Below are positions 374 to 18,577 of a stretch of DNA of 64,000 bases, one piece after another (position 1 is the stretch's first letter; the number at the start of each line of letters is the position of its first letter). Location of the stretch: the NCBI RefSeq assembly GCF_058153355.1, contig NZ_CM177019.1; one strand, written 5' to 3'. The position numbers and the translations under genes were made by a program. A model generated the notes under the pieces. It had not been told where the DNA came from and did not search any database. It worked only from the letters and a program-made list of their open reading frames with translations.

Positions 374-379
374 TGACAA

Positions 380-1465: not shown

Positions 1466-1661
1466 GTCCTGCTGCTCATCATGGTTTGTGAGCAGTCAGT
1501 TTGCGGGTGGTGCGGGAAAATCTGGGGTTATGCTATTTGAGTAATGGAGAAAGAAAGTGGAAGGAAGATAAAACGGGATTCATACACCGTTAAATACCGG
1601 TTTAAAAATCCCCTGGCGCGTTTTAAAAAATCTGTGCGGCTGATTTCATGTCTGATTCAGT
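1466..1661 (-). promoter_or_regulatory. Mu G-I intergenic region; expected site of the centre-of-genome strong gyrase site and the C-dependent late promoter P_I
   Basis: 196-bp non-coding gap about 17.8-18.0 kb from the Mu left end; assignment from established Mu biology, exact motifs not mapped. Confidence 0.4.
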
Positions 1662-2132: not shown

Positions 2133-3448
2133 TTATTCACCTCCACATGCCCCTCCAGTACGTCAATCATCCCGTCAGCAATCGCGGTTTCAAGCGACTG
2201 TGCAGATACGCGGCTGATACTGACCAGCACATCCGCACGGTCATTCTGCCTGCCGACTGTCTGTGATGTTCTGACCACAATCCGGGCCATGCCGTCACGG
2301 GTTGCCACAACATACAGCAACTGGTGGTTCTCCCTGTCCCACAATACTGCCTGTGGTTTTGCCATCAGCGACGGCAGATGCTGTAAATCCTCCGGTTTCA
2401 GGGCGGCATCAGCAGTGGTCGCCAGACTTTTCCCGTTCATCACAAGCAGACGGGCTGGCATATTCCCGGTGCGCTGATGTACGGCTTCAGCTACCGATTC
2501 CGTCATAAAACCCAGTGCCCGGATTTCATGACCGGTCTGACGTGATCCTGCCAGGCGTTTAAGCCAGAGGGAAAAAGCAAGCTGACGCTCCCGGCTGTTA
2601 TTCAGCGTCTGAACAACCTGCTCACGCAACTGCGCGTCGCGAATTTCCACCAGTTTTCGAATCAGTGCCTGATCCGTACCAAATGCCGCCGAACCGGGGT
2701 TATATGACCAGCCCACATCCGGCGTCATTTTTACCCGACCGTTGTCAAACGTGGTTGACGATGTGCGGAAAATCTCTCCGGTGCTTTCATCCGTACCGGC
2801 ATCCACTTCGCGGGTATTCATGAATGACGCACCATAACTGACCTGTAGCCCCAGTTCTTTCATGCGGGCCGCAGACAGCGCCCGGACGCGACAGCGGCAG
2901 TTCCAGCCATTGGGCGGGTAATGCGTCTGCCAGAAAATGTCGTCATACCGGAAAACCATATTGTGCAGCCGCGCATGTTCCGGGCGTGTTCTGCCATCCA
3001 TAACGGCAACGTACTGCCAGTACGGGTACAAATCGGCGGTATTCATCATCTGCGCATAACGTCCTGCCCCATACGCCGTACGGGTATTGACGTTATAAAT
3101 GGTTGCCAGACGACGCGGACTGCCCAGCTCGATTACCTTCGCGTTTCCGTCTGCATCCACGATGATTTGTTTTCCCCACCATCCGAGTTTTTGCAGCCGG
3201 GGGGCCAGTGTGCGGGTAAATTCCTCACGGGTGATGCCTTCACTGACAGCCCGCTCCACTTCCTCACGGATTGTGGTCAGGACATCCATCCGGGTGGCTT
3301 TGGCAACGGTAAAGGCGCGGGCGTGCGCGTCTGCCAGTTGTTCGTACCAGTTCCAGGTGATGTTGTAGCCTTTGGCGCGGAAATACGCGACAGCCTCCTT
3401 TGGCGGGAGGCGTGCGGCATACGCCAGATCAATGGTCTGCTGCGGCAT
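2129..3448 (-). CDS. F: Mu F protein (gp30), head morphogenesis
   Basis: ORF track 2129..3484 begins at a GTG; the ATG at 3448 (MPQQTIDLAY...) has a GGGGG Shine-Dalgarno 7 nt upstream, so the shorter start is preferred. Confidence 0.8.
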   Translation of the reverse strand: MPQQTIDLAYAARLPPKEAVAYFRAKGYNITWNWYEQLADAHARAFTVAKATRMDVLTTIREEVERAVSEGITREEFTRTLAPRLQKLGWWGKQIIVDADGNAKVIELGSPRRLATIYNVNTRTAYGAGRYAQMMNTADLYPYWQYVAVMDGRTRPEHARLHNMVFRYDDIFWQTHYPPNGWNCRCRVRALSAARMKELGLQVSYGASFMNTREVDAGTDESTGEIFRTSSTTFDNGRVKMTPDVGWSYNPGSAAFGTDQALIRKLVEIRDAQLREQVVQTLNNSRERQLAFSLWLKRLAGSRQTGHEIRALGFMTESVAEAVHQRTGNMPARLLVMNGKSLATTADAALKPEDLQHLPSLMAKPQAVLWDRENHQLLYVVATRDGMARIVVRTSQTVGRQNDRADVLVSISRVSAQSLETAIADGMIDVLEGHVEVNK

Positions 3449-4967
3449 CCAGACGCCCCCATATATCGGCAACAAAAATGGCACGGGTCAGCATGTCGAT
3501 AAGTTCTGCATCATCCATCTGCGGATATAATGAAGCAGCTTTGTTCATGGCGGCTTCCGGGCCATCTTTCAGCACAGAAAAAATGACGGGTTTCAGCAGG
3601 GGATCAACCGAACGCTGCCAGTCTTCCGGTGAGACGCCCATCCGGTCGATATCATCCTCCTGCGGGATATCTTCAGCGGATAATGCGGCCTCTTTCTGCG
3701 GACCGTTATCCGGGACAACCGGTTGAGCAGTAAACACGGCTTCATCACCGACCGGCTGTGGAATATGAAGTTTTTCCTGTATCCAGGAGACCGGAATACG
3801 CATTCCCGCCGCCAGTTTCGGAATGGCGTCAGACAGTGCCGTAATATCACCCGCTTCACTGGTATCAAACACAATGCCCGGCAGGCGGTTAATATCAATG
3901 GTGCTGTCACTGTTCAGTGCCAGCAGGGGATAAATCAGGTCACGGTTAATACTGCGGGCAAGCTGGCCCACATCCGCGTTACGGATTTCCCGGCGAACCT
4001 CATCATGCACTTCACCCAGCGACCGTGCACCTTTATCGCCAGCCTCTGTGGTCAGGGTGCCGCCCAGAATGGCTTTTGAAATCGCTTTTTCTGCCCAGCC
4101 AATCATCGCCATAAAGGGGTCTGACTGACCATCTGCGGCGCTCTGAAAATCCAGCGTCATCCCCATCGGAATAATGCCGCCGGCACGTCGCCCGATATCC
4201 ATCACGGCCTGCATCAGCGTGGCTTTCTCGCGGTTCGTTGAGCCGGTCGGATATTTACCGACGCGCATGGGGAGTCCGTAAATTTCCAGAAACTCTGCAA
4301 AATCACGCACGGAATAGTTTTTAAAAATAAAAGGCCAGATAAGCGTGCGCACAAGGCCATTGGTGCCGACATACCCGGTGCGGGATTTGGCCCGGTGCAT
4401 AAACCAGCCGAACGGTTGCAGCTCCAGCCCGTGATAAGACGCATCACGCAGGCGTAATTCGTTCAGATTGTCGGGGTTCGCACAGAACAGCGCCGGATCG
4501 CGATGATGCAGCGCCACCGGCACGCGCATTTTGCCCAGCCAGCCCCATTCAATCTCCTGCATGGAATAACCCTTGAGAATGGCATCACCGGCATCAAACA
4601 GGGCATCTTCAAACCACGCCGCATCATGCAGATATTCATTCAGCATGTCGGCGTCTTTTTTCTCCTGTGCGCTGGCATCACGTGCCGGAGCGATGCGCCA
4701 TTCCAGCGCCTGAATGGCAAGGCGGCGCTTGCTCAGTTCGGAAAAAAGGTGGGTGTCCTTTTCTTCCATATCAAAGGCCAGGTCAGCCTGTGCGGTCAGA
4801 TCACCGCGTTCGGCATCACGCAGCATCTGCGCGGCCCGGTTCGGCGTCACACCACTGGAAGGATGCTCCTGCGTACGCTTCATGACCATTGCCAGCTCAT
4901 CGCTGCGGGTCTGCATTTCATCGTCAAAATCAAACGGCTGCCCGGAAATATCCAGAATACGGCCCAT
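3429..4967 (-). CDS. H: Mu portal protein H (gp29)
   Basis: ORF track 512 aa, MGRILDISGQPFDFDDEMQTRSDELAMV...; between terminase and F. Confidence 0.9.
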   Translation of the reverse strand: MGRILDISGQPFDFDDEMQTRSDELAMVMKRTQEHPSSGVTPNRAAQMLRDAERGDLTAQADLAFDMEEKDTHLFSELSKRRLAIQALEWRIAPARDASAQEKKDADMLNEYLHDAAWFEDALFDAGDAILKGYSMQEIEWGWLGKMRVPVALHHRDPALFCANPDNLNELRLRDASYHGLELQPFGWFMHRAKSRTGYVGTNGLVRTLIWPFIFKNYSVRDFAEFLEIYGLPMRVGKYPTGSTNREKATLMQAVMDIGRRAGGIIPMGMTLDFQSAADGQSDPFMAMIGWAEKAISKAILGGTLTTEAGDKGARSLGEVHDEVRREIRNADVGQLARSINRDLIYPLLALNSDSTIDINRLPGIVFDTSEAGDITALSDAIPKLAAGMRIPVSWIQEKLHIPQPVGDEAVFTAQPVVPDNGPQKEAALSAEDIPQEDDIDRMGVSPEDWQRSVDPLLKPVIFSVLKDGPEAAMNKAASLYPQMDDAELIDMLTRAIFVADIWGRLDAAADH

Positions 4968-6622
4968 TACCAGCCCCCTCGTTCAAACTGGTGATAATCA
5001 TCAAAATCATCGTTATCAACATCATCACCACGGTGGCGTGGTGGCAGCGCCTGTATGCTGTCCTCGTCGATAACAAAACCATTCATATAAGACGCTCTGA
5101 CAGCCATACAGAGCGCCACGGCAAAGTCGCCATGTCGTCGGCCTTTACCACCTTCATCTTTTGTGCGCCCCTTATCAATCTGCGGAATACCTTTGTCCAC
5201 CTTGATGTGGAGCAGGTCATCAAGAGTGGTCTGGTGCCGGGCAATCGTGATGTTCTGCGCTTCAAACTCGCCTTTCAGTTTTGGCATCCACTCCTGATAC
5301 CAGGATGCGGTCAGATTCACACAGTCGATCATCTCCGGGCCATAAATCAGACGGGCGGCTTCTGCCAGATAACCGCCGTTACCGGTGGCATCAAATGCAG
5401 CGCCGGTAAAACGGGGCAAACGGGACAGAATGAATAAAAGGATTTGTCGCTGCTGGTCATAGGTCACATTACGCAGCTCCACGCGGAAACATTCGCGTTT
5501 GCGTAAGTCAGGAGTGATGGCAAGCGGAACAAACACCGTCAGGTCGCCACGGCGTGCAAAGTCTTCGCCCAGTACGTGTTTATTGAGCGGCGACAGCGCA
5601 TCGAGCAACGGGAGCAGCTCCTGTTCACACCAGTCCTGAACGATGCCGTGGCGCATTTGTGGTGTCAGCGATTCAAAATCGTCCGGGGCTTCAAAACGCA
5701 GAATCGGGATATCCCGCGCTGGCGTCATGGCGGCTTCAATCAGCACGCGTGACAGATAAGCGCCCCCGGATTTTTTAGGAATGCAGCCGTATTCCTCGTC
5801 GGCACTCTCTTTATTCGGCGCATTCCGGTACAGGCCATCACGCCAGGCTTTTTCCGCTTCCGGCGACCACGGCTGATTCGTGACGTAACAGATACGTCGG
5901 TACAACCCGTCAGCGATGGCATCATCCAGCGTGATGCGGTGAACGCTGTAATCCTTGCGCCCCTCGCGCGCATCCTGAATGTACTGGTTAAACAGGTTAT
6001 CGACGCCGTTATGTGTCGATATGATCCGCACGCGGGCACCCCACATGGTGAGAGCAAAGGCCGCTTTCAGGAGTTCGTCCAGGGCTTCATGAAATGCCGC
6101 CTCATCAATCACCACGTCCCCCTGCAAACCACGCAGGTTAGACGGACGGCTTGACAGCGCCTGCACCTTAAATCCGCTGTTAGGGAAACGGATCATATAA
6201 GTGAGGATTTCTTCTTTTTTGTCGCTGTCCCAGAAGGTCTGCTCCCAGACATCAGCCTTTGCCAGCTGGTTAAAGGCGCGGGCAAACAGGGCACAGGCGG
6301 CGATATATTCCAGCGCCATTTCCTGACGGGAACCCACATAAAAGACGTTGCGACCGCCACGGCGGCGCGGCTTTGCTGCCGTCATGACATTGCGGCCCGC
6401 TTCGGCCCATGTCAGACCGGTACGACGGGATTTTTCAGCGATGCAAATCTGGCTTTCATCCTCAAACCAGCGGCGCTGATAGCCCAGAAAAACCGGTTCA
6501 TTGCGGGGCTGTGCTTCCCCGATATCGGTCACGATATTCACGCCGAGCAGTTCGGCTTCCTCACGCAGGTTGATTTTTCGGGGGGCATGAAGGGCTTTAA
6601 GGTTGTTTTCTCTGGTGTTCAT
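4967..6622 (-). CDS. Mu large terminase subunit (gp28)
   Basis: Track ORF is 615 aa, but an internal ATG at 6622 (MNTRENNLKALHAP...) sits just downstream of the gp27 stop, giving 552 aa; position upstream of portal. Confidence 0.85.
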   Translation of the reverse strand: MNTRENNLKALHAPRKINLREEAELLGVNIVTDIGEAQPRNEPVFLGYQRRWFEDESQICIAEKSRRTGLTWAEAGRNVMTAAKPRRRGGRNVFYVGSRQEMALEYIAACALFARAFNQLAKADVWEQTFWDSDKKEEILTYMIRFPNSGFKVQALSSRPSNLRGLQGDVVIDEAAFHEALDELLKAAFALTMWGARVRIISTHNGVDNLFNQYIQDAREGRKDYSVHRITLDDAIADGLYRRICYVTNQPWSPEAEKAWRDGLYRNAPNKESADEEYGCIPKKSGGAYLSRVLIEAAMTPARDIPILRFEAPDDFESLTPQMRHGIVQDWCEQELLPLLDALSPLNKHVLGEDFARRGDLTVFVPLAITPDLRKRECFRVELRNVTYDQQRQILLFILSRLPRFTGAAFDATGNGGYLAEAARLIYGPEMIDCVNLTASWYQEWMPKLKGEFEAQNITIARHQTTLDDLLHIKVDKGIPQIDKGRTKDEGGKGRRHGDFAVALCMAVRASYMNGFVIDEDSIQALPPRHRGDDVDNDDFDDYHQFERGGW

Positions 6623-6629
6623 AACCCTC

Positions 6630-7220
6630 TCATGCCTTACCCAGCAGCACATCACGGATACGCTGCTCCAGCTCTTCGCTGATGCCATCCTGCCCGCGCA
6701 GTTCTTCACTGACGGCGTTTGCCGCTTCTTCTGCGAATGCCTGGCGGATTTCTTTCTCGCGCCGGTGGCTGGACATTGCCGTGGATTCCAGACGCTGTGC
6801 CGCCAGCATGGCATTTTTCAGCAGGTCAATATCCACGTCAGATTCCGGGTTTTCGATTTGCCGCATCATGGCCTTAAAAAGCTGGCTGCGGGCCATTTCC
6901 AGAATCAGCTTTGTGGTTTCTCCCATTGGCTTGTCGCCAAGTTCTGCGGTCAGTGCTGACGTCATTTCACGCATCTGTCGCAGGTTATGGCCTACCTGCT
7001 CGACGTTCGTCGCGTAACGATTCAGACCGGAACGGGAGAGTTTCATCTCATCCGGCAGGCCAGCGTCTTCAATCAGTGCGTTAATTTCTTCCAGAATGCG
7101 GGCCTGTGGGATCGCCTTATCACGCAGCATTTCATGCAGCGTTTTACGTACGTTTTCCGGCAGTAAATCCACTTTTGAAGCCCGGCCCCGTGTTTTCCTG
7201 TCCATCACGCCTCCTGTCAT
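6630..7220 (-). CDS. Mu gp27, DNA-binding small terminase-like protein
   Basis: ORF track 196 aa, charged helical protein immediately upstream of the large terminase gene. Confidence 0.7.
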   Translation of the reverse strand: MTGGVMDRKTRGRASKVDLLPENVRKTLHEMLRDKAIPQARILEEINALIEDAGLPDEMKLSRSGLNRYATNVEQVGHNLRQMREMTSALTAELGDKPMGETTKLILEMARSQLFKAMMRQIENPESDVDIDLLKNAMLAAQRLESTAMSSHRREKEIRQAFAEEAANAVSEELRGQDGISEELEQRIRDVLLGKA

Positions 7221-7507
7221 GCACGGGGACGCGGACGCTTGACACCGGCAACGCGGGCGCGGCCTTCCGCCACATCCTGACCTCGGGAGGTCAGCGTTAC
7301 GACATAAAAGCCGCGCAGGTTTTCCACGGTGACCAGTTGCTGCTCTGCCAGCCAGTCAATCTGGCCGCGAACCACATCGCGGGAAACGTTGTGTCCGTAT
7401 GCATCCAGACAGTCCTGAAGGATGGATTCGTTGGCTTCGTTATTGCAGTCCATCAGGGAACGCAGGATGACCAGACGACGGTCTTCAGTCAGAATATCGT
7501 TAATCAT
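7217..7507 (-). CDS. Mu gp26-position hypothetical protein
   Basis: ORF track 96 aa; start overlaps the upstream gene stop (ATGA). Confidence 0.6.
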   Translation of the reverse strand: MINDILTEDRRLVILRSLMDCNNEANESILQDCLDAYGHNVSRDVVRGQIDWLAEQQLVTVENLRGFYVVTLTSRGQDVAEGRARVAGVKRPRPRA

Positions 7508-7821
7508 GAATTACTCCGGTTTACTGCGTTTTCAAGCAGCAGCTCCAGTTGATGGGAAAATGACTGCACCCGCTGGGACAGCACCCGGATATCGCCGGAC
7601 AGCTCTGCAATACGCAGGCGCATTTCGTGTACATCTTCTGTGCCGGGGATGCTGGCGTAGCGGGTTTCCATTTCGGTCATCCGGTTTTCAAGACGCTCCA
7701 CACGCTCAGTGCTGGCAAAACTACGACGCATTGCCCAGACGGCCCCACCGGCCACAACAGGCAACAGGTAAGGCCATAACGCTAAAACTGAAATCAAATC
7801 CATTATTCTGCTCCACGGCAC
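7504..7821 (-). CDS. Mu gp25-position membrane protein (releasin or holin-like lysis accessory)
   Basis: ORF track 105 aa with N-terminal hydrophobic segment LISVLALWPYLLPVVAGGAVWAM, then a charged coiled region. Confidence 0.6.
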   Translation of the reverse strand: MPWSRIMDLISVLALWPYLLPVVAGGAVWAMRRSFASTERVERLENRMTEMETRYASIPGTEDVHEMRLRIAELSGDIRVLSQRVQSFSHQLELLLENAVNRSNS

Positions 7822-7997
7822 CAGTGGCAGTAGTTCGCCATCGGCTGCTGTCTCAGCACATCAGGCCGCAGCTCACGACCGCAACCGGCACACAATACAG
7901 GCGGGTCATACGCCGCCGGGCGGGGAATATCACGGGTATCCCCCTGCCAGAGTTCAGCGAGCAGCAGCGCCACCGCCCGGTTCTGGTCTTCGTTCAT
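7803..7997 (-). CDS. Mu gp24-position small zinc-ribbon protein
   Basis: ORF track 64 aa with CAGC...CHWC cysteine pairs. Confidence 0.5.
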   Translation of the reverse strand: MNEDQNRAVALLLAELWQGDTRDIPRPAAYDPPVLCAGCGRELRPDVLRQQPMANYCHWCRGAE

Positions 7998-8295
7998 AAA
8001 TTTCTTTCCTTCGGGTCTCCTGTTCCCGGACTGATGCCTTGTCGCGGTTGCACTGCCCGAGCGCCATCAACAGGTCAGCATTCCAGAGAAGGGATGCTCC
8101 CCACGTCAGGGGCTGTGGCATGGGCGGAACGGGCGTTGCTTCCGTCAGTTCTGCATCAGTTTCGGGCAGGATCACCACCGATGGCACGGGTGCGTTTTTC
8201 GAGTTCCCGCAACCTGTCAGCAGCAACGGCAGGCACAGGACGAGTGCTGCAATTGTCACCGGTAATGGCGGTTGTAATTTTTTGTTTTGCATCAT
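7954..8295 (-). CDS. Mu o-spanin outer-membrane lipoprotein (gp23.1), partly overlapping the i-spanin gene in another frame
   Basis: Inside track ORF 7954..8430: MMQNKKLQPPLPVTIAALVLCLPLLLTGC has a signal peptide plus LTGC lipobox, followed by a proline-rich mature region. Confidence 0.65.
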   Translation of the reverse strand: MMQNKKLQPPLPVTIAALVLCLPLLLTGCGNSKNAPVPSVVILPETDAELTEATPVPPMPQPLTWGASLLWNADLLMALGQCNRDKASVREQETRRKEIYERRPEPGGGAAAR

Positions 8296-8542
8296 GATGT
8301 TCTGTCTCATCTTCCAGCCGCGCGGCACGATTTGCGGCACGGATAGCGGAAAATACCTGCATCGTCTGTTCCTGACTGTGTAACAACCATTCAGCAGTGT
8401 GGCGGGCCTGTTGCTCCGTCTGTAATTCACGGCGCAGCGTCTGGTTATCGTGGCGGGTGCTGTCCAGCCTGTGCCACAACACCCCGGACAGAACGGCGGT
8501 AAACACGGCTGCCAGCAGTAAACTTTTACTGGCGAAGGTCAT
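8156..8542 (-). CDS. Mu i-spanin (gp23)
   Basis: ORF track 128 aa with N-terminal TM helix (LLLAAVFTAVLSGVLW) and a charged coiled-coil; immediately downstream of the endolysin. Confidence 0.7.
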   Translation of the reverse strand: MTFASKSLLLAAVFTAVLSGVLWHRLDSTRHDNQTLRRELQTEQQARHTAEWLLHSQEQTMQVFSAIRAANRAARLEDETEHHDAKQKITTAITGDNCSTRPVPAVAADRLRELEKRTRAIGGDPARN

Positions 8543-9044
8543 CCGCCCCCCTGATATTCCAGATTGCCATTTCCACTTCGCGACGGTTCATCAGTCCTTT
8601 CCATTTATGGCCTGCGGCAAACACCCAGCGGGCCATCTGGTCACGTGCTCCGGCGTAATCACCGGCATTGAGTTTTTTCAGCAGCGTTGATTTACTGAAT
8701 GCGGTAACACCGGTGTTGAAAATAAACGTTGCCAGCGCCGTTTTCTGATATGGCGTCAGCGGCACCCTGACAAGACGATCGATTGCCGCATAAACCGGTT
8801 TTAAATCACTGTCGAGGAGAGCCATACACTCCGCATGGCTGTAACGGCGCATTTCAATATCCGGCCCGGTATGTCCCACACAGACCGTAAGCACACCGGC
8901 AATATCGCGGTAAGGCAGATAAGCGATATTTTCCAGATGGATCAGAGACTGACGGGTCATTTCCTGATAACCACCCACACCGCCACCGGCAATTGTTACA
9001 GCCAGCAGTGCGGCTTTCAGTTTTTTTGGGATCTCCGCCATCAT
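8526..9044 (-). CDS. lys: Mu endolysin Lys (gp22), SAR-type lysozyme
   Basis: ORF track 172 aa, MMAEIPKKLKAALLAVTIAGGGVGGYQEM..., N-terminal signal-anchor-release helix followed by a lysozyme domain. Confidence 0.9.
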   Translation of the reverse strand: MMAEIPKKLKAALLAVTIAGGGVGGYQEMTRQSLIHLENIAYLPYRDIAGVLTVCVGHTGPDIEMRRYSHAECMALLDSDLKPVYAAIDRLVRVPLTPYQKTALATFIFNTGVTAFSKSTLLKKLNAGDYAGARDQMARWVFAAGHKWKGLMNRREVEMAIWNIRGADDLRQ

Positions 9045-9135
9045 GCTTCCCTGAAAAAATGCGCTGATGGCAGTCTAAAAAATCAGGTGACAGGTGCGGG
9101 ATTATGGTGACAGGAAATAACCGGCAGGATGCCGG
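9045..9135 (-). promoter_or_regulatory. C-lys intergenic region, expected location of C-dependent late promoter Plys
   Basis: 91-bp gap between C stop and lys start; assignment from Mu biology. Confidence 0.4.
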
Positions 9136-9558
9136 TTATTTCTGGCTTTCAGGTGAGAACAGGTCAGGCTGATGACGTCGTGTATGCAGCTTTCTCTGGC
9201 GGGCAATAATCTGGTAGATCTGCGGCTGGGACAGGCGATACTGGCGACGCAGTTCTTCCATGTTACGACCATTGAACTGGCAGTAAAGCAAATCGTCGCG
9301 TAACGCGGTCAGGATCGTATCGCCGCAGGGGATGTAAAACTGCCGCCCGCCCAGAAAACAGGACAGGGCAACGGCCTGTTTACGGGCAAGCTCACGGGGA
9401 TTGCTGACGTTCTGGCGTTTCAGTTCGTTTTCCAGAACATCAATCAGATCAACCACCGAACGGGGCCAGCGTGATTCCAGTTCCGGGGCCGGGATGTTAT
9501 CAATATGTCCGATTAACTGGCGAATTGCCGGATCGTGTTCAAATAAATCATGCTGCAT
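9136..9558 (-). CDS. C: Mu late transcription activator C
   Basis: ORF track 140 aa, MQHDLFEHDPAIRQLIGHIDNIPAPELESRWPR...; shares its C-terminal fold with Mor (..FNGRN..EL..Y). Confidence 0.9.
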   Translation of the reverse strand: MQHDLFEHDPAIRQLIGHIDNIPAPELESRWPRSVVDLIDVLENELKRQNVSNPRELARKQAVALSCFLGGRQFYIPCGDTILTALRDDLLYCQFNGRNMEELRRQYRLSQPQIYQIIARQRKLHTRRHQPDLFSPESQK

Positions 9559-9670
9559 ATTTTCCCCCGGTTAACAGACAGAAAGATACACCACGGCACT
9601 GATGGTTATCAGAACCACAAGGGCAATCACTTTTATCGCACTCATCAGCGTGGACGGACCGAAACATTCA

Positions 9671-9901
9671 TCACTGAATTTTCTGTACACAATATTTTTC
9701 CTTATAACGTTGGCAGTGGTGAAGAATTTCCGGCATATCAACCGACTGCCAGCCTTTCATGTAATAACTTCCGTGGGTGCCATCATGACCGGTATAGTCG
9801 CGGGGCGAAGGCCGTGGCCCACCGGCGACACGGTGTAAAACCTCCTGACGCAGCCGCTCACGTCTGCCAAGATGAAAGGATGCATTCCAGCCTTTACCCA
9901 T
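9671..9901 (-). CDS. Hypothetical small protein in the mor-C interval (uncertain coding)
   Basis: ORF track 76 aa; region should also hold the middle promoter Pm; overlaps a plus-strand ORF. Confidence 0.3.
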   Translation of the reverse strand: MGKGWNASFHLGRRERLRQEVLHRVAGGPRPSPRDYTGHDGTHGSYYMKGWQSVDMPEILHHCQRYKEKYCVQKIQ

Positions 9902-9978
9902 GATGATTTCCCCCGGTACGGTTATTCATCACAGGATATTGAGGACGTAAAAAAAGCCGGATTAACCGGCTTTACTGT

Positions 9979-10368
9979 TTACAGTAGTGAGGGCTGGTAC
10001 TGGCGGTATTTCAGCCGTCGCATCCGGCGAATGGCCTTGTAAACCGTATTGAAAGTGACACCATAACGGGTGGTCAGTTCGCTGACGTTGCGACCGTTAA
10101 AATCATTCCAGATACGCAAATCCCGAATCAGCGAGTCCAGAACCTGACCGCGTGGAATGTAGACCTGACCGCCGCCCAGATGCTTACAGATAGCCACAAC
10201 AATCTCCAGTGAATGGGCAGGATCAACACCCAGCCGGGACAATTCCCCGCGCAGTAAATCGTTCAGCTCCGCCAGCAGTGCCGGAAAGCGTGACGTATCC
10301 TCGGCGGGATTGTCAAGATGTGCCAGGATGGTGTCATCCTGCAAATCACCAAATAAATCTTCCGTCAT
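9979..10368 (-). CDS. mor: Mu middle operon regulator Mor
   Basis: ORF track 129 aa, MTEDLFGDLQDDTILAHLDNPAEDTSRF... Confidence 0.9.
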   Translation of the reverse strand: MTEDLFGDLQDDTILAHLDNPAEDTSRFPALLAELNDLLRGELSRLGVDPAHSLEIVVAICKHLGGGQVYIPRGQVLDSLIRDLRIWNDFNGRNVSELTTRYGVTFNTVYKAIRRMRRLKYRQYQPSLL

Positions 10369-10916
10369 TGTGCCATCCTCCGTGTCTTTCTGGCATGGGC
10401 ATAAGCCGCCGTCATGGCATCATAGCCGCGCAGTTCACGCCCGGACGGACTGACCGGCAACGGAAGCTCGTGACGGGAAAAGGCTTCACGAATACAGCGG
10501 ATGTGCCACTGCTTGAGTGTTTCGAGGACTGTCAGCAGCGTGTCGCCATGACACCACGCCAGTGTGGAAACGCCCTGTCCGCCGTTGCGTTTCGCGGTCA
10601 GGCGCTGAACATATTTATCCAGCGCCACATCACCGCCATCGGTAATAAAACCGTCTTCTGCCATCTGCTGCCAGACTTTGTATACCTTCTCGCGGGGCGT
10701 GACATGCCCCTTAAAGCGGCGACGTGGATGTTTATTCTGCTTCTTAAAGCCGCGTTCTTTCATGGCATCAATCACCTGTTCCAGTTGCGTAACCGTCAGC
10801 TCGCGGCAACTGATTTTGCCCGTTTTCTGCATCAGAAAGGCGCGGTAAGTATCGTCGCCGAGTTGTAGCTCCCGACGGGCGACATGGATTAATTTAATCA
10901 GGGATGTGCGATTCAT
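10365..10916 (-). CDS. gemA: Mu GemA
   Basis: ORF track 183 aa, MNRTSLIKLIHVARRELQLGDDTYRAFL...; immediately upstream of mor with ATGA overlap. Confidence 0.8.
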   Translation of the reverse strand: MNRTSLIKLIHVARRELQLGDDTYRAFLMQKTGKISCRELTVTQLEQVIDAMKERGFKKQNKHPRRRFKGHVTPREKVYKVWQQMAEDGFITDGGDVALDKYVQRLTAKRNGGQGVSTLAWCHGDTLLTVLETLKQWHIRCIREAFSRHELPLPVSPSGRELRGYDAMTAAYAHARKTRRMAQ

Positions 10917-10985
10917 GATCGTACCTCCGGAAAGAGGCGGTGCTGCAACACCGCCTGAATTTACACATCAATCAGAGAGGATTTT

Positions 10986-11252
10986 ATGGAAAATAATGTA
11001 CAACCTTATGATGTTGCAGGTTATGCGATTGCATCAGCACTGGTGCGCCTTCTGGTGAAGAAGGCGATCATCACCGCAGAAGAGGGCCAAGCCATTTTCA
11101 GCTCTTCAGCAGAGATTTTAAAAGATGCGCCTGCAATAAGAACAAGCCGCCGCGAAAACATGCAACTGTCAAAGATCATGGAAGACATTATCAGTTCGTT
11201 AGACCCAGATGCTGACGGATCTCAAAAGCCTCAAACACATGAGCGTCAGTAA
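10986..11252 (+). CDS. Plus-strand hypothetical protein inside the Mu early operon, antisense to the early transcript
   Basis: ORF track 88 aa; ATG preceded by GAGAGG Shine-Dalgarno 7 nt upstream; 3' end overlaps the convergent ORF 11191..11493 by 62 nt. Confidence 0.35.
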   Translation: MENNVQPYDVAGYAIASALVRLLVKKAIITAEEGQAIFSSSAEILKDAPAIRTSRRENMQLSKIMEDIISSLDPDADGSQKPQTHERQ

Positions 11253-11493
11253 CAATATCCTGGTCTGATAACCCCAGCCTGCGGCGGATGTACTCCTCGC
11301 GGGCTGTTTCATTTTGCAGTGCCACTACTGTTTCCAGACGATTCATTTCGCGGTTGATAATGTCACGGACTTCTCTGGCGGTGAGATTATGCTTAATACC
11401 ATATTCAACGATAGCGCGAACACGTTCCAGCATCCCTTTTTCAGCCATGACGTTATCAATATTAAGGGGAGTAAATTTATCTTCATTGTTCAT
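11191..11493 (-). CDS. Mu semi-essential region hypothetical protein
   Basis: ORF track 100 aa; ATGA overlap with the upstream ORF. Confidence 0.5.
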   Translation of the reverse strand: MNNEDKFTPLNIDNVMAEKGMLERVRAIVEYGIKHNLTAREVRDIINREMNRLETVVALQNETAREEYIRRRLGLSDQDIVTDAHVFEAFEIRQHLGLTN

Positions 11494-11813
11494 TTTGCGG
11501 CCCTCAGAATAAATTCAGGATAAAATTTCAGACTCATTTGCCGTAACACATCCAGTGCAGCAACGGCTGCTGATTTATCGTTGCCATCAGCAATAGCGCG
11601 GAGATTTTCAATAATCCAGTGAGGACTCAGTGACTCAGCAACAATACCGAGTCGGTACGCCATGACCTCATCAATTGCACGGTTATAAGACGGGGCGTAT
11701 ACCGCCGCCACAAAGTTACCGATCACATCTTCAGGAAAACCCGCCGCCGTCAACAACGCTGTCAGTTCCTCGGATTTTGTAAATACGCCATTATTCATTC
11801 TGTTCACCTTCAC
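11490..11813 (-). CDS. Mu semi-essential region hypothetical protein
   Basis: ORF track 107 aa. Confidence 0.55.
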   Translation of the reverse strand: MKVNRMNNGVFTKSEELTALLTAAGFPEDVIGNFVAAVYAPSYNRAIDEVMAYRLGIVAESLSPHWIIENLRAIADGNDKSAAVAALDVLRQMSLKFYPEFILRAAK

Positions 11814-11982
11814 AATTCATGCACGCCGTGTCATCGCCCATATCGCAGTGGTTGCATTTCTGCCCGCCACAATGGGGACACTCTTTCAGATATTCAGGGG
11901 ATTCATTACCGCAGGTCGGGCATTCCTGTTTCACCGTGGTGAATTTCCCCAGCCACGAATACGATGTTTCATTGTTTTCCAT
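11791..11982 (-). CDS. Mu semi-essential region small zinc-ribbon protein
   Basis: Track ORF 11791..12054; internal start MENNETSYSW at 11982 has a GGAGG Shine-Dalgarno; CPTCG...CPHCGGQKCNHC...CMNC cysteine clusters. Confidence 0.5.
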   Translation of the reverse strand: MENNETSYSWLGKFTTVKQECPTCGNESPEYLKECPHCGGQKCNHCDMGDDTACMNCEGEQNE

Positions 11983-12520
11983 TGTTTGCCTCCGCCTGCT
12001 CCAGTGCCATAACTGGTGCGTCAGAACAGTCAAGAATGAGATAGCGCAGTACATGGTCGGTGATATTCCATGCGCTTGAGCTGCAAATAAAACGCCCCAG
12101 CCGGATATCGATATAAGCCATCACAAAACGGGGCATTCCCTGTTTGCACATCTCGTCATCCACTTCTGCAACGATGTGAACGGATTCACAGGTCAGTACG
12201 CCTGTCGCAAACTCTTTTGCCAGCGCGGGGATAGTATTACCTTCCACCCAGGGTAATGAGCGACGCCAGTTGCACCACACCGCATCATCAACGGCAGGCT
12301 GCTCAGTTGCGTTTCGTCTTACAGGCGGCGTCGGACGCGGGCGCGGAACGTCATAAAATCCGTTGCATTCGGTGAGCACTCCGGCATCAACCGCATCCCG
12401 CAGGAAATACACCATTGACGAGGGCAGCATCTTCATTTTTTCAGCCAGAACCCCGCAGGTCAGACGCCCGTAAGCCAGTAATAATGTGCTGACCCCATTC
12501 AGAACTTTTGCATCAATCAC
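11969..12520 (-). CDS. Mu semi-essential region hypothetical protein
   Basis: ORF track 183 aa. Confidence 0.55.
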   Translation of the reverse strand: MIDAKVLNGVSTLLLAYGRLTCGVLAEKMKMLPSSMVYFLRDAVDAGVLTECNGFYDVPRPRPTPPVRRNATEQPAVDDAVWCNWRRSLPWVEGNTIPALAKEFATGVLTCESVHIVAEVDDEMCKQGMPRFVMAYIDIRLGRFICSSSAWNITDHVLRYLILDCSDAPVMALEQAEANNGKQ

Positions 12521-12523
12521 CGG

Positions 12524-13078
12524 TTATTCCTCCGTCAGTGCCACAAATTCAGAATGTTTAATACGCTGGCATTCGGAGGGAACTGGTCCTTTAACCTCAC
12601 CGTCCAGAAGGCGCACCTCAAACAAAATGCCGAATCCATCACGGGTGTGGTGCATCTCCCAGAGCGATTTGAAATCCCACATATTGGGTATGACATCAAC
12701 CCCAAGTTCATTGCACAGCCAGCCCGGAAAATCCGGGTATTTACCGAGCTGATTTTCATAGCCCCGGATAAGCTCCGCGTGTTCCCGGCCTGCTGGTGTT
12801 GTCATATCCGGCATCGCTGCCCATAACTGAATATCACCAATAAAAAGTGTCCTTGATTTAATCTCCCATCCTTCCGGTGGTAAACGGTTAAACCAGACAC
12901 GCGTAACCCTCTCAGGCCCTTTGTCACCAGACAAAAACACACCGCTTGCTTTCACTGATTGCTGTAATGACGCAATAATCTCACCACGCTTAACAGAAAC
13001 CTCTTTCAGCCAGCGAATCGTATAACCGTTAGCGGCTGCGTCACTCAGTTTAAAATAAGCACATGCTTTCATTTTCAT
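12524..13078 (-). CDS. Mu semi-essential region hypothetical protein
   Basis: ORF track 184 aa. Confidence 0.55.
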   Translation of the reverse strand: MKMKACAYFKLSDAAANGYTIRWLKEVSVKRGEIIASLQQSVKASGVFLSGDKGPERVTRVWFNRLPPEGWEIKSRTLFIGDIQLWAAMPDMTTPAGREHAELIRGYENQLGKYPDFPGWLCNELGVDVIPNMWDFKSLWEMHHTRDGFGILFEVRLLDGEVKGPVPSECQRIKHSEFVALTEE

Positions 13079-13169
13079 TCTCTCCGGTTCTGATTAAGGC
13101 GCGAGTCGTCCCCTGACGCATCGCGCCATAATTAAACGAATGTGAATTAATTAAATATTAATGGTGGTA

Positions 13170-13694
13170 TTAAATACCGGCTTCCTGTTCAAACGGAATA
13201 ATGGAAAAATCTTCAATTCCCGATTTAACTGTAATTCCGGCAACACCTGCGACCGCTTTCGGTTCCAGTAAAATCGCTTCCTTGTTGATTTCCTGCTTCG
13301 TGCGAATAAAGCGTTGCAGGCCAAGACGCTCCAGCGTTTCCATCACTGCATCCATACCACGAATACTTACTGATGGTGGACGGACCCGCCACGATACATC
13401 ACCGGTGACAAGATTTGCCGTTTTCACTTTGCCGCCGTTTGTCAGTTCGTCGCGGTTCGCTTCACACCATCCCTGAACGCCTTTTGAAAGGGTTTCAATA
13501 TCGGTTTTAATCGGTGCAATCCGGGCTGCAAATTTCTCCGTAATTTCCGCGATGGCATCATTCATTTCCGTTTCCAGACGTGATGCTTCGCGCTGTAAGT
13601 CCCCGATGCGTTTAATATCGGTAATCACCGCATCGCGGTTTTGTGGCACATAAGCCGCTGCGGCACTTTTGATACGTTTTGCTGGTTTAGCCAT
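13170..13694 (-). CDS. gam: Mu Gam, DNA-end-binding host nuclease inhibitor (Ku-like)
   Basis: ORF track 174 aa, MAKPAKRIKSAAAAYVPQNRDAVITDIKRIGDLQREASRLETEMNDAIAEI... Confidence 0.9.
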   Translation of the reverse strand: MAKPAKRIKSAAAAYVPQNRDAVITDIKRIGDLQREASRLETEMNDAIAEITEKFAARIAPIKTDIETLSKGVQGWCEANRDELTNGGKVKTANLVTGDVSWRVRPPSVSIRGMDAVMETLERLGLQRFIRTKQEINKEAILLEPKAVAGVAGITVKSGIEDFSIIPFEQEAGI

Positions 13695-13713
13695 AAATTA
13701 AAGCTCCTGTTAA

Positions 13714-14013
13714 TTAATATCCGCTGTATACAATGCTGGATACAGCTCGATTGCTTAATTCCATCTTTCGGGCAATGACATGAATATCCAGCCCTTCTTT
13801 ATAAAGTTCACGACATAAATATTTGTCGTGTTCACTGATTCGGTATACACACAATGATATTCCGTGCCTTCTGGCATGTGCCCGGAGGGCGGTTGTGGCG
13901 ACTTTCAGTTTTTCCGCCATTTCTTCAACGGTCATTTTCCCGACGTTGGCTTCGATAAATTCCCGGTCTTCGCGTGACCAGCGCTTACGATTACACTTCA
14001 TGTCAGCCACCAT
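13714..14013 (-). CDS. Mu early region hypothetical protein with a putative helix-turn-helix
   Basis: ORF track 99 aa; segment MTVEEMAEKLKVATTALRAHARRHGISL resembles an HTH. Confidence 0.55.
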   Translation of the reverse strand: MVADMKCNRKRWSREDREFIEANVGKMTVEEMAEKLKVATTALRAHARRHGISLCVYRISEHDKYLCRELYKEGLDIHVIARKMELSNRAVSSIVYSGY

Positions 14014-14433
14014 TCAGTACAGCAGAGGCTCGCGCAGTGATGCCGGAATATGCCGCAGCGATAACTGAACCGCTTTCAGGGCAAGCGAGGAATAACAGCA
14101 GCGCGCCCGGCCTTTTGCCATTAACCGGTAATCGCGCCAGATACGCTGCCACATTTCACGGGCTTCAGGGTCTGATGCGCAGATGTATTCCCGGTCCATG
14201 ACGTACTCCCATAAATCCACGTTGAACGCACCGCCAAATGCAATGGCGCGGGATATGCTTTCGCCGCAATAACGCGCACAGATGCTGTAATGGTCGAAAG
14301 CAATCAGGTAAGTCTTTTCACCACAATCATCAACTTTCCGGGCGTAAATAAATCCGCGTAATTCACCACCGTTGTTATTGCGTCCCTGAATTCGGATTAA
14401 TGCCTGAATTTCATTTCGGATTTTGACGTTCAT
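14014..14433 (-). CDS. Mu early region hypothetical protein
   Basis: ORF track 139 aa. Confidence 0.55.
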   Translation of the reverse strand: MNVKIRNEIQALIRIQGRNNNGGELRGFIYARKVDDCGEKTYLIAFDHYSICARYCGESISRAIAFGGAFNVDLWEYVMDREYICASDPEAREMWQRIWRDYRLMAKGRARCCYSSLALKAVQLSLRHIPASLREPLLY

Positions 14434-14453
14434 TGTCAGCGCTCCTTTGCGAA

Positions 14454-14723
14454 TTAATGTTTAACCGCATTCACCGGATGTGGTACTAAATCACATTCAG
14501 CCTCCATACCCACTTTCTTCATAGTGGTCAGCATCTCATCTTTGGCCTTTTTAATAATTTCAGGAGCCATAGTCAGGACGATATTTGCCAGTAAATCATG
14601 AGGCCCGGTATTTTCCGTTGGCGAGATATCTGCAAGACATGCTTTTGCATCCAGAACTTCTCTGCGCCCATTGCAACCTTCACAACTTTCCAGCCATGTA
14701 AACTCAAAGATAACTTTTGCCAT
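14454..14723 (-). CDS. Mu early region hypothetical protein
   Basis: ORF track 89 aa, cysteine-containing (CEGCNGRRE). Confidence 0.5.
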   Translation of the reverse strand: MAKVIFEFTWLESCEGCNGRREVLDAKACLADISPTENTGPHDLLANIVLTMAPEIIKKAKDEMLTTMKKVGMEAECDLVPHPVNAVKH

Positions 14724-14734
14724 TTTGTTTCCCC

Positions 14735-14989
14735 TTATTGATTCTGAATAACTGCGCTGGCTTTTACCTTCGCGCCTTTTACCTGCTTAAAGAAAACCGC
14801 GCTGCACCACGGACAACATGCAAAGGAGTCCCATACTTCATTTTCTGGTGAGCATTGCGTCATAATTTGCTCTTTGCACTTGGGGCAATTAAATGCAGTC
14901 AGAGCCACATTGTTATTCTGTACCCGTTTAACCCATTCAATATATTTTCCAGCTTTAGTACACATCGTTATCTCCAGATAATCTGGCAA
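14735..14989 (-). CDS. Mu early region small zinc-finger-like protein
   Basis: ORF track 84 aa with CPKC and CCPWC motifs. Confidence 0.5.
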
Positions 14990-15195
14990 CCATTAAGACG
15001 GGCCGTCCATACAGAACGGGCCACCCCGGACTTATGCTCCATAATTCTGACCGCGTTTTTTACCAGTTCCACCGGTGGGTAAGTGATTTCAAGAATCGGA
15101 CGCGCCACGCCGAGATATGATTCATTTACATGACTCCCGCGCGCCTGTAACCAGTTCTGCGCATCCGTTGCCATTTTTATATTTCGGGCCATCAT
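14968..15195 (-). CDS. kil: Mu Kil-position protein (first gene after B)
   Basis: ORF track 75 aa immediately downstream of B; assignment by position and size. Confidence 0.5.
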
Positions 15196-15210
15196 AATTT
15201 CTTCTCCTTC

Positions 15211-16149
15211 TTAATTACGCAGCAGCGTTAAAATATCAACGTCCAGGTCTAATTCACGGAAAGCCTGACGCAGATAATCTTCGTTAACACGCTCACCTTT
15301 ACCATGAGCCGTCATGGCGGCAAGGCGAAGCGAATGATTCAGAATGCGAAGCGCACCGGGTTTCTGTGCAATTTGCTGTAACAACTCCAGTTCTTTTTCG
15401 CCGTTAATATGCCAGGCATCCGCAATAGCTTTTACATCGGCTTTTTTGGTTTTATTAATTGCAGTGGGCTTTGCAATACGGGAAAACAGACGGGCAAATT
15501 CAACCGTTCTGTTGCCCCCCGTCATATTTGAATAAACGCGGTGATTGCCCATCAGCACAAGGCCAGTGCGGGTTGATTCCTGTAACAGGCGGAGTTCTTC
15601 CAGAGCTTCAGCACCAAGATGATCAGCTTCGTCGATGATAACCAGCCCCTGTGTACCTTCAAGGCGGCGTCGCAGGGCGCGGGAGAGCGGCCCTTTACGG
15701 CGTGGTGCGTCATTCATTCCCAGCTCAAACGCCAGTTCAGTAAGACATTCCAGAACGCTGGCACAGGATGGCGTAATGGTGATCATCCAGACATTGTTAT
15801 TGGTGCGGCGATATTCACGGGCCGCTTCGGTTTTGCCCACACCAGGATTGCCACATACAACAGCAATACTTTCAGTCAGGCTGGCAAAACGCATACTTGT
15901 CCAGATTTGTTTTACCGTCTGCGTTTCCACAAAGCGGGGCGGTTCCGGTAGTTCTGCGACTGCATGATATTTTTCCAACCAGCGTTGCAGTATTTGTGCA
16001 ACACGTTCGTTATCCCCGTTGTACTTATCATTGATAAAACTACTGATAGTCCCGGTAGAAAGTCCGCTCTCAAGGGCAATTTGTTTAAAGGTGGTTTCTT
16101 CATTTTCTACAAGGGTGCGCAGTCCTGCGCGAATATCTGAAATATTCAT
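15211..16149 (-). CDS. B: Mu transposition ATPase / target DNA activator MuB
   Basis: ORF track 312 aa, MNISDIRAGLRTLVENEETTFKQIALESGLS..., Walker A GNPGVGKTE. Confidence 0.95.
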   Translation of the reverse strand: MNISDIRAGLRTLVENEETTFKQIALESGLSTGTISSFINDKYNGDNERVAQILQRWLEKYHAVAELPEPPRFVETQTVKQIWTSMRFASLTESIAVVCGNPGVGKTEAAREYRRTNNNVWMITITPSCASVLECLTELAFELGMNDAPRRKGPLSRALRRRLEGTQGLVIIDEADHLGAEALEELRLLQESTRTGLVLMGNHRVYSNMTGGNRTVEFARLFSRIAKPTAINKTKKADVKAIADAWHINGEKELELLQQIAQKPGALRILNHSLRLAAMTAHGKGERVNEDYLRQAFRELDLDVDILTLLRN

Positions 16150-16187
16150 CTGAATAACCTCGTAATTAAATTTTGTTAAAACGTTAA

Positions 16188-18179
16188 TTAAATGACTTTT
16201 TTACGTCTGTTCTGTTCCAGAATATCCAGCGAATGATTCAGATATTCATCACGCTCAGTTTCGTATTCATCATCACGCTCCTGATTCTTCACCCGTTCCG
16301 TATTACCGGAAGGCCGGAAAATGCTTACAATTCGTGATTCTGGTGCTTCAGGTTCGGCTATCTGCGGCAGCAGCTCTGCCACTTCCAGTGCATCCATTTG
16401 TTTCTGTGCCTTAATCGCTGCTTTCGTCGCAGATTTCAGTTGTTTCTGGCGGCGGCGATATTCACGGCCTGCCGCAGCATCATTAAACGCAACAGGTGCC
16501 AGACATTCCGCTTCACAGATAAACCGACCGTCCAGGGTGTAGCAATAAACCGTGCTGTGTAACTGCTGTGGATCAAATCTGACCACAACTTTTTTCACTC
16601 CGGCATTCATTAACGCCATGTTGTAATAAACGTTTTTCGCGCCTTTAAGGGAGCCGCCAACTTTAAGCGCGAACTCGCCTTTACGTGAAACGTTCACCGC
16701 CTCGGCAGGCAGTAACAGCATCCGTTTTTGCTCTTCGGTAGGCTTACGCACAATCGTTCTGGCGTATTCACGCTCAAAAACGTCATCAAACGAAAGTTTG
16801 CCCCCGCACATTTCTGTTTCTCGGCCTGTTCTGGCATTGAACATCGCCACACCTTCGGCAAGGGTTTTCAGAAACAGCTCTGCATCAACAGCGCGGTCGC
16901 CATAGTTATCAGGTTTTGCCTGCGGATTAGGCCCCGTATATGCGCCAGCCAGTGCCGGATGTTTATCAACGTATTCCTCAAGGCCACCAACACCGAAAGC
17001 ACGTTCTACAGGTTTTGCCTGGCCCCAGCCTTTACCGGCAACAACGCTTGTCCAGTGCATGGTCGCCCCCATCAGTAAAAACAGCCCCTTTGGATCGTCC
17101 TCTTTCACCTTAAAGCGGTAGCGATTGGGCGCGCCCCCCGTCAGCCATTTATTCGCAGCACCACGGGTGTTATCAATGGTGATGTGAAAATCCTCCGGGA
17201 TGCCGTAGCGTGTCACTACATCCATGAACGAGAGGCGAATTGAATCGATGTTCTCGCTAACATCGCAGCGCCAGCCCAGAATTTTTCGGGTTTTCACATC
17301 CTGCCAGAACCATGTTTTCGGGCGGATCACATCACCGTTAAACCAGCGTACAAAGACGTTATGCAGATAACCGTCGCCGTTGATCCACTGCATGGCGTCC
17401 AGGTGTTCCACAGTTCGTTGCTGTGCCGGTATCAGATGCATCAGTGCATGTTCACCTTCACGGCAGGCAACAACCATTGCCCCGTCCAGTTGCTGAATCC
17501 GGCGAAATGCCGTGGCTCGGGAGGGAATACTCCAGCCATGCTCGCGGGCTGCCAGTTCCAGACGCTCATAACATTTGCGGAAGGCGGGTTTTTCCGGTCG
17601 CAGATAATCTGCAATCAGAAACTGCCAGGCATCCTCGTCAAATTCACTTTTGTGAACATTGCGACGGGATGCTCCACGTCCATCAACAAGTGCAGCCGCC
17701 CAGTCAGGCTTCGCAAACTTCTGTACCTGGTAATACTTGTCCCGCAAAGTGGATGCGCTGACCTGGTAATGCCCTGCAACGGTCGCAAAAGCCGTTTTCG
17801 TTGAAATCCCCTGGTTCAGCATTTCGTCTGCAGCCTGAACCGCAGGCAACCATTTTTCAGCAAGTCTGCGCTGGGAATCGCTGGCGTTATCCCATTTGCT
17901 CCACAGTGCCTCACGATCATAATCATGGGCTTCCAGCGTGGGGCGGGCGATTTCAAAATACCCCTGACTTGTTTCAATCTCTCCTTGTCTCAGCAATAAC
18001 GCCGCTTTCGCTTCAACAGGTAAAGAGTTCGCATTGTATTCAATTGCTTTACCACCTTTGACACCTGCTCTAGTGCGGTTTTGCCATCCTTGCTTTTTAG
18101 CAACATAAATCACACCAGCCGATGTTTTCGGCAAACCAGGAAGATTCGCACACTCTTTCGGTGATACCCAAAGTTCCAT
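16188..18179 (-). CDS. A: Mu transposase MuA
   Basis: Track ORF 666 aa; canonical 663-aa MuA begins at [23 protein letters not shown] (ATG at 18179). Confidence 0.95.
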
Positions 18180-18180
18180 G

Positions 18181-18408
18181 TTATTCACCTGCTTGATATC
18201 GGCTAGGCCAGATTACTTCCGGTTTAGTTTCTAAGGCGTTAGCAATAATCTGCTCACCCTTTGGCCAGTGTCGTTCTAGCGCATTAGCTAATGTAGTTGG
18301 CGCATAACCGAACTGCCGGGAAAGAGCTGATAAAGAGAGCTTTCTTTTCTTAAGTCCCGCAATCACATCCGCTCGATGCCAATCACGGGCCTTTTCGTTG
18401 GAACACAT
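18181..18408 (-). CDS. ner: Mu Ner, early-transcription negative regulator
   Basis: ORF track 75 aa, [36 protein letters not shown]... Confidence 0.9.
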
Positions 18409-18577
18409 TTAAAAACCCTCCTAAGTTTTGTAATCTATAAAGTTAGCAATTTAACTAAGTGTAAAAACTTAGCTAGCTTGCTAAAAAGATAATTACTGAA
18501 AAGCTTTTTGTAAAGTTACTTTTTAGTAAATTTCTTTGATTACTGATTAATGCATTGATAAATAAGGGGTTTAAATT
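18409..18577. promoter_or_regulatory. Mu early operator/promoter region (O1-O3, divergent Pe and Pc, Ner and IHF sites, transposition enhancer)
   Basis: AT-rich divergent intergenic region between c and ner with repeated CTTTT/AAGT-type repressor half-sites. Confidence 0.7.

Follow-up and report, generated by a model that had tools for sequence, protein, structure and literature searches.

The early and middle genes of the Mu-like prophage in the 64,000-nt stretch of DNA analysed here (the window) are all located on the minus strand. Within this region an open reading frame of 88 amino acids runs the opposite way (10986..11252, plus strand), and the question it raises is whether such a frame is a gene at all and, if so, what kind of protein a phage would encode backwards in its own early operon. 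A preliminary description, made from the sequence alone, had left the choice between an unannotated antisense gene, for example an anti-defence or regulatory moron, and a chance ORF. Our comparisons indicate that the plus-strand ORF is very probably a genuine antisense protein gene. It is an already known and annotated one, gene 15 of phage Mu, and the gain is modest: a correction of annotation, not a new kind of system.

Locus and identity of the antisense frame

The prophage region is closest to SfMu (95%), and agrees with Mu at 97% over the shared parts. Its minus-strand genes include C (9136..9558), mor (9979..10368), gemA (10365..10916; 183 aa, identified by the Pfam model GemA, 1.5e-30, and by the Mu and SfMu annotations), gene 14 (11191..11493; Mu_14/Mup14, 100 aa, PHROG 6075), B (15211..16149) and A (16188..18188). 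The plus-strand frame exists as initially claimed (ORF list): it opens with ATG, is separated from the divergent gemA by a 69-nt spacer and converges with gene 14, the final 62 nt of which overlap its last 20 codons. This overlap, reported in the preliminary description, is borne out by both the sequence and the ORF list, and the ORFs of the window together with the Mu and SfMu annotations agree with the statement that the other Mu genes recognised between B and the head genes are all on the minus strand. A further early ORF of 107 aa (11490..11813, minus strand) is common to SfMu, where it is gp14, and to some Yersinia phages; it is absent from canonical Mu and D108, which explains a gap in the Mu alignment, and its codon-usage score is coding-like (+34 bits).

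The suggestion that the antisense frame might be unannotated has to be abandoned, because gene 15 is already present in RefSeq Mu, in SfMu, in the PGAP calls of E. coli, in PHROG 8747 and in M64097. The RefSeq genome of Mu (NC_000929) contains exactly this ORF on the reverse strand under the name Mup15/gp15 (NP_050619.1, formerly AAF01092.1), the SfMu counterpart is gp16 (YP_009152202.1), PGAP calls the gene as a CDS in E. coli chromosomes, and the old record of the Mu left end (M64097) lists it as the putative ORF 'F-134'. The gp15 of the window shows 95.5% amino acid identity to that of Mu and 100% to that of SfMu (tblastn), and PHROG 8747 matches it over residues 1-88 of 88 (hmmscan, 1.3e-60). 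Membership in this family is thus documented by full-length similarity as well as by synteny, i.e. a slot between gemA and gene 14, antisense orientation and an overlap with the 3' end of gene 14. Position, strand, length and the 62-nt overlap are all identical between the window ORF and Mu gp15 or SfMu gp16; nothing material differs, and we regard them as the same gene.

Mu is a reference phage, and the databases conflict on this 270-bp segment: RefSeq carries gp15 in reverse orientation, the revised GenBank record carries Mu_54 in forward orientation, and D108 carries nothing. In the revised record (AF083977.1), gp15 is missing and Mu_54 (AAF01092.2, 55 aa, early strand) stands in its place; the annotation update behind that record is acknowledged in PMC9239132. 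The D108 record has no annotation in its 376-nt gap, the slot of gene 15.

Conservation of the plus frame and its protein family

The length of the ORF alone is within chance expectation, as window positions 1..18500 contain 27 plus-strand ORFs that are antisense to Mu genes and reach 88 aa or more. Codon usage, scored with a table trained on 14 Mu genes of the window, places gene 15 first among the prophage's 44 plus-strand ORFs with 60 aa or more. Its frame gains +20.9 bits, the sole positive score among the six frames, and its 0.21 bits per codon fall within the span of accepted small early genes (-0.04 to 0.50). The gene fills a gap between accepted minus-strand genes.

More information comes from diverged relatives of the window sequence. 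A second lineage is represented by E. coli KFu019 and RIVM_C019217 (L006, L007), with 72% identity over a 421-nt block, and a third by the Salmonella proteins P0008 and P0007 (loci L009-L013), which were recovered by an exhaustive HMMER search. All three lineages possess a plus-strand ORF of 86-88 codons, whose start is about 70 nt away from that of gemA and whose end overlaps a gene-14-like frame by 56-62 nt at the 3' end of the latter. From ATG to TAA the alignment is gapless (72% over the block, about 60% DNA identity in the ORF), whereas the upstream 70-nt spacer has accumulated frame-shifting indels, and this difference between window and KFu019 fixes the ATG as the start of gene 15.

Over the 67 codons outside the gene 14 overlap, the gene 15 frame is free of stops and shows dN/dS values of 0.18-0.39, compared to 0.7-2.3 in the four frames with other wobble positions. 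In codons 1-37 the differences accumulate in excess at third positions (e.g. 6/8/24 at positions 1/2/3; p = 0.0005-0.06). In codons 38-67 the periodicity is non-significant, with differences near saturation, and between window and Mu all four differences in the part unique to gene 15 alter the amino acid. The conservation of frame, start and length, the purifying selection and the codon usage are accordingly strong evidence for coding in codons 1-37 and weak evidence in codons 38-67. Taken together, the comparisons show the plus frame to be, as judged from sequence, the selected reading frame of this segment. The two checks named at the outset, conservation of ORF and start in Mu and Mu-like phages and constraint at synonymous sites, thus both speak for the antisense gene, which is very probably a real protein gene, and the in-frame conservation in diverged relatives together with the best codon score renders the chance-ORF option the disfavoured one. 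The literature that we searched contains no expression data for gene 15, and the papers on SfMu and on the Yersinia phages do not mention it.

The conserved core of gp15 comprises about 45 residues, in which an AlphaFold2 model built from 13 sequences predicts two helices (residues 8-25 and 31-47) that form a hairpin. This hairpin is modelled with pLDDT values of 83-92 (residues 11-40), the remainder with low confidence, and the first helix contains R/K/D/N in all lineages. The C-terminal half (residues ~48-88) evolves fast, with about 50% nucleotide and 30% amino acid identity between lineages; it displays no periodicity, yet neither stops nor indels. According to these comparisons the C-terminal half is free to vary, and the overlapping gene 14 dictates a part of it. 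Four proteins of the L020 type introduced below (P0019, P0020, P0023, P0024) have the first ~43 residues in common and then continue with another, frameshifted C-terminal tail, which may mean either that this half is dispensable or that the copies are decaying or mis-assembled. A different pattern is found between the otherwise almost identical E. coli prophages L006 and L007, in which 15 sites differ within 85 nt in the centre of gp15 (codons 34-62; L006 1712-1796), compared to 0-4 differences per 100 nt over about 1.3 kb of flanking DNA. These differences are distributed 6/4/5 over codon positions 1/2/3, i.e. with no third-position bias, and a hotspot of this type is not seen in comparisons of the window with Mu or SfMu. 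It could equally represent diversifying selection or a patch of recombination.

The gp15 sequence has no relatives in Pfam, NCBIfam, PADLOC or PDB sequence searches and corresponds to no Rfam family. Its PDB sequence matches (dihydroorotase, MotA and LysR; E 0.24-0.57) are at chance level and were rejected, and a Foldseek search against PDB and BFVD returned as sole match Mu's own ORF Q38493 ('F-134'). The anti-phage defence models of PADLOC gave no match for four family members at E values up to 1. The anti-defence role that had been proposed for the frame finds no support in these searches, since relatives are lacking in PADLOC, Pfam, NCBIfam and PDB alike. A type I toxin-antitoxin pair was likewise considered and rejected, because by inspection the gene 14 protein and gp15 are hydrophilic or amphipathic helical proteins with no membrane-spanning segment.

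Homologues of gp15 with 45-51% identity and identical synteny occur in Mu-like prophages of E. coli and Salmonella, and a profile search yielded a small family of 23 clusters, all from Escherichia or Salmonella elements. One HMMER match, to an Asp-rich repeat protein of 1438 aa (P0005), adds up 12 stretches of low complexity and was discarded as an artefact. More divergent ORFs occupy the same slot in further elements. In a Mu-like element inside the Stx1 phage LC727895 (L020) we found a plus-strand ORF of 79 aa (1501..1740), and in D108 an unannotated plus-strand ORF of 119 aa (L004 987..1346, corresponding to the complement of NC_013594 ~7853-8212), which matches PHROG 38610, scores +40 bits in codon usage and is present in Mu_3F6 too. 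P0013 is a variant of the D108 ORF, again of 119 aa, with replacements that are by eye mostly conservative.

The DNA similarity of D108 and L020 to the window ends 39 nt past the gemA start, and none is detectable in the slot itself; relationships among these ORFs have to be traced at the protein level. P0008 and the L020 ORF share 41% identity over 41 residues (E 3e-9), the L020 and D108 ORFs 40% over 35 residues (E 3e-7), and PHROG 32893 matches gp15, P0008 and the D108 ORF alike. A direct comparison of gp15 with the D108 ORF gave no BLASTP match and, with hhalign, a weak one (E 0.0035, probability 9%), so that we accept their homology only via the L020-type intermediate and PHROG 32893. On these grounds the D108 ORF is to be viewed as a distant homologue of gp15. 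The D108 and L020 ORFs resemble gp15 in slot and antisense orientation; their Shine-Dalgarno sequence (SD) is likewise about 70 nt away from where gemA starts, they overlap gene 14 at its 3' end, and gene 14 again contains a plus-strand terminator. All three have the core motif [DG][VI][AT][AG][YF]x[IVML][AV][SG]xL[LVMI]xxL[VLFI]x[KN][GA][IVL]I in common. In contrast, overall identity to gp15 is merely 11-24%, and the D108 ORF differs by a 26-residue N-terminal extension and another C-terminal half. Our study thus adds evidence for true coding and extends the family to D108, to Salmonella and to Mu-like elements borne by Stx phages.

In the Mu-like prophage of Salmonella Aberdeen (L013), a transposase gene of the IS256 family (Pfam Transposase_mut; 4236..5444, minus strand) is inserted at the 3' end of the gp15 homologue. 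The insertion has provided this homologue (P0007) with a new C-terminal tail, and has separated it from gene 14.

Signals of the cassette and its possible role

The preliminary description credited the frame with a strong Shine-Dalgarno sequence at a spacing of 7 nt. The motif GAGAGG is present on the plus strand at 10975..10980, while direct counting places it 5 nt before the ATG and not 7. Purine-rich blocks of this kind (GAGG, GAGGAAG, GAAGG, AAGGA) are found at equal distance in every lineage despite differing surroundings and indels.

Downstream of the gene, an intrinsic-terminator-like element is predicted on the plus strand by RNA folding and covariation (11275..11316). It consists of a GC-rich hairpin (11275-11306), which begins 22 nt past the gene 15 stop and lies antisense within the gene 14 CDS, and of a T-run (TTTCATTTTG, 11307-11316). 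In three lineages the hairpin folds with -20.7 to -25.8 kcal/mol (z -2.2 to -3.3), and it is found in all nine aligned sequences, D108 and L020 included; in the latter two, changes in both arms alter gene 14 residues, yet keep the pairing. Overall, 90.6% of cells are paired, compared to 44-50% with slid partners, and compensatory changes occur at 3 pairs. At several positions G pairs with U; minus-strand RNA would have A-C mismatches there, and the structure is therefore specific to the strand of gp15. The same element is listed in AF083977.1 as a TransTermHP terminator (Mu 7839-7873).

The search for a promoter gave a different result: crude scans detected no match to the plus-strand sigma-70 consensus in 10600-11600, and a comparison of the 200 nt upstream in 7 lineages yielded no conserved one. 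Weak candidates picked by hand, e.g. a -35 in a hairpin loop or the CATGAT where gemA starts, are not conserved, and we do not retain them.

Gene 15 is dispensable and patchily present. The Yersinia phages vB_YpM_3 (L005) and vB_YpM_23 carry a natural deletion of about 220 bp (window ~10971-11190), which joins 'ACACATCA' to 'GTTCG' and has an imperfect short direct repeat (ACAyATCA...ATCAG) at its borders; it takes away the SD and that part of gp15 which does not overlap gene 14, and gene 14 itself is intact. Both were isolated as infectious, plaque-forming phages (PMC10434027). A similar two-piece match at the deletion is seen in H85, a prophage of E. coli JCKP02. Three E. coli Mu-like prophages (L021-L023) lack genes 14 and 15 together, and the block is present in about 53 of 5426 complete E. 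coli genomes. E. coli W/KO11FL/LY180 have a copy at 98% identity (NC_017635, 321248-321669).

The reading that we favour, and consider fairly probable, is that the Mu gene 15 orthologue is a genuine small protein gene in an antisense cassette, most likely for an accessory, moron-like protein of the quiet-operon state. The compact cassette consists of the SD, the 88-codon ORF and its own plus-strand terminator, placed backwards between gemA and gene 14. Its orientation is that of the repressor gene c, and lytic early transcription meets it head-on. We infer that gp15 is an accessory protein of the lysogen, which would be produced at times of a silent early operon, i.e. during lysogeny or ahead of full induction. 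Early transcription running head-on into a gene with its own terminator, combined with a dispensable and patchy presence, makes an accessory, moron-like protein the most likely option. The small helical hairpin suggests binding of a partner, and gp15 may work through protein-protein contacts made by this hairpin, probably in dimeric form, and not by enzymatic activity. Between B and the head genes, no other ORF on the strand of the repressor has support as a gene; this position and its own terminator make gene 15 a reasonable candidate for a function expressed by the prophage in the semi-essential early region.

Prophage morons such as HK97 gp15 or lambda bor and lom are autonomous units of promoter, gene and terminator that are expressed from the prophage. 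Gene 15 is similar in being small, in having its own SD and terminator, in opposing the lytic operon, and in being patchy and dispensable for plaque formation. It differs in that crude scans detected no promoter, in that its expression from the prophage is putative, and in that its slot is fixed, conserved and occupied by one protein family, not by a recent foreign insertion. The moron idea of the preliminary description is hence sustained as far as SD, terminator and patchy presence are concerned, and finds no such backing in the crude promoter scans.

A comparable arrangement has been described from Fc02, a transposable phage of Pseudomonas, in which olg1/olg2 overlap gene 10 on opposite strands; one partner of the overlapping pair is active during lysogeny, the early lytic promoter drives the other, and exclusion activity was shown experimentally (PMC9936078). 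Compared by description, both cases concern a Mu-like phage with opposite-strand protein genes that overlap in the early or regulatory region; unlike gene 15, however, olg1/olg2 lie next to the repressor and ner, and their overlap is extensive and not 3'-terminal (PMC9936078).

A gene 14 homologue stands beside every gene-15-like ORF examined, and this companionship bears on what the antisense arrangement may do. It is conceivable, although unlikely in our estimation, that the function lies mainly in antisense transcription, with the protein being secondary: a plus-strand transcript, antisense to roughly 125 nt at the 3' end of gene 14 as well as to the untranslated sequence ahead of gemA, would reduce the leakage of early transcription into gemA and mor by interference or RNA pairing. 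The convergent geometry with its 20-62-nt CDS overlap, a terminator well within gene 14 in every lineage, the co-occurrence of gene-14-like and gene-15-like genes and the low-level Pe transcription reported in prophages (PMC3820752) are all consistent with this. On the other hand, the purifying selection on the N-terminal 45 residues and the conserved SD argue that the protein matters, YpM_3 is viable with gene 14 but without gene 15, and the transcript on which the antisense mechanism depends is a candidate only, with no promoter detected in the scans. Given the overlap of the 3' ends and the invariable association with gene 14, there is nevertheless room for an antisense or interference component beside the protein. 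A bolder variant, to which we assign a similarly small chance, treats genes 14 and 15 as a conserved convergent module with 3' overlap that is peculiar to enterobacterial Mu-like phages, in which a lysogeny-expressed hairpin protein, with or without an antisense transcript, would counteract or gate the early-expressed gene 14 product or the read-through into gemA and mor; the locus would then be a hidden switch for control or exclusion, and the hotspot between L006 and L007 the trace of an arms race.

Competing readings of the segment

Between the ribosome site of gemA and the SD of gene 15 lies a GC-rich inverted repeat of the form A-GGCGGTG-N6-CACCGCC-T (10935..10956). Its stems are invariant and its loops variable in 11 Mu-like lineages (window, L002, L004-L006, L009, L013, L020-L023), including prophages without gene 15, and its fold amounts to -15 to -16 kcal/mol. 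On the minus strand, a T-run (TCTTTTTTCGG in the Salmonella type) comes next, and the gemA SD after it. This order and the retention of the repeat in prophages that lack gp15 point to a control of gemA, not of gp15. The element looks like an attenuator or terminator before gemA-mor, or like the 5' stem-loop of a 'semi-early' gem transcript.

The inverted repeat gives some substance to the idea that neither ORF of the segment is translated and that the DNA is an untranslated regulatory spacer, consisting of a semi-early gem promoter and an attenuator, in which the open frame is incidental. The 'semi-early promoter' of AF083977.1 (Mu 8151-8217) spans the SD and start of gene 15, a conserved hairpin with T-run immediately precedes the gemA ribosome site, the scans found no plus-strand promoter, and the segment is deletable. 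Regulatory DNA does not, however, explain a 3-nt periodicity with synonymous changes, the maintenance of length and frame with no indels at ~50-60% identity, or a positive codon-usage score; protein homology persists between lineages whose slots show no detectable similarity in DNA, and the plus-strand terminator would need a separate explanation. We judge such a spacer improbable.

The revised GenBank annotation implies still another reading. Mu_54, whose equivalent in the window would encode 55 aa on the minus strand (11021..11188; Mu AF083977.1 7960-8127), is read in the single antisense frame that has its third positions in common with gene 15. Its dN/dS of 0.20-0.46 is low because the wobble positions are shared, as expected for any frame that shares those of a true gene, and dN/dS alone consequently separates Mu_54 and gene 15 poorly. 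That Mu_54 is the real gene, translationally coupled to gene 14 (TGA-TA-ATG) on the early strand, with the plus-strand ORF as its shadow, is the least probable of the readings and hardly tenable, since the points in its favour (an annotated RBS in AF083977.1 and the choice of the curators of the latest Mu annotation, an ATG 2 nt past the gene 14 stop, a frame that is open in the KFu019/RIVM lineage too, with 61 aa, and a dN/dS below 1) are countered by an internal stop and the lack of a Met start in the Salmonella lineage (L009/L013), where the frame has no ORF in L009 that reaches 25 aa, by slots in L020 and D108 with no homologous minus-strand ORF, by codon-usage scores of -1.7 and -10.8 bits (+15.1 in the gene 15 frame vs -1.7 over the same span), by BLOSUM62 scores per residue of 1.6-1.9 vs 2.3-2.6 for gene 15, lower in five of five comparisons, and by the lack of a significant PHROG match (best E 0.13). 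Mu_54 is not conserved across the related Mu-like elements, and most probably represents a shadow ORF; we do not consider it a gene. The comparative evidence therefore favours the restoration of gp15 in the Mu annotation, and the 119-aa ORF of D108 is to be annotated.

Gene 15 may have company among the antisense frames of these elements. The Salmonella loci L009 and L010 contain a second reverse ORF (3052..3387, plus strand; 111 aa, no Pfam match) between gemA and a Mor-family gene, which is missing from L011 and L012 and may be a further antisense accessory gene of the early or middle region.
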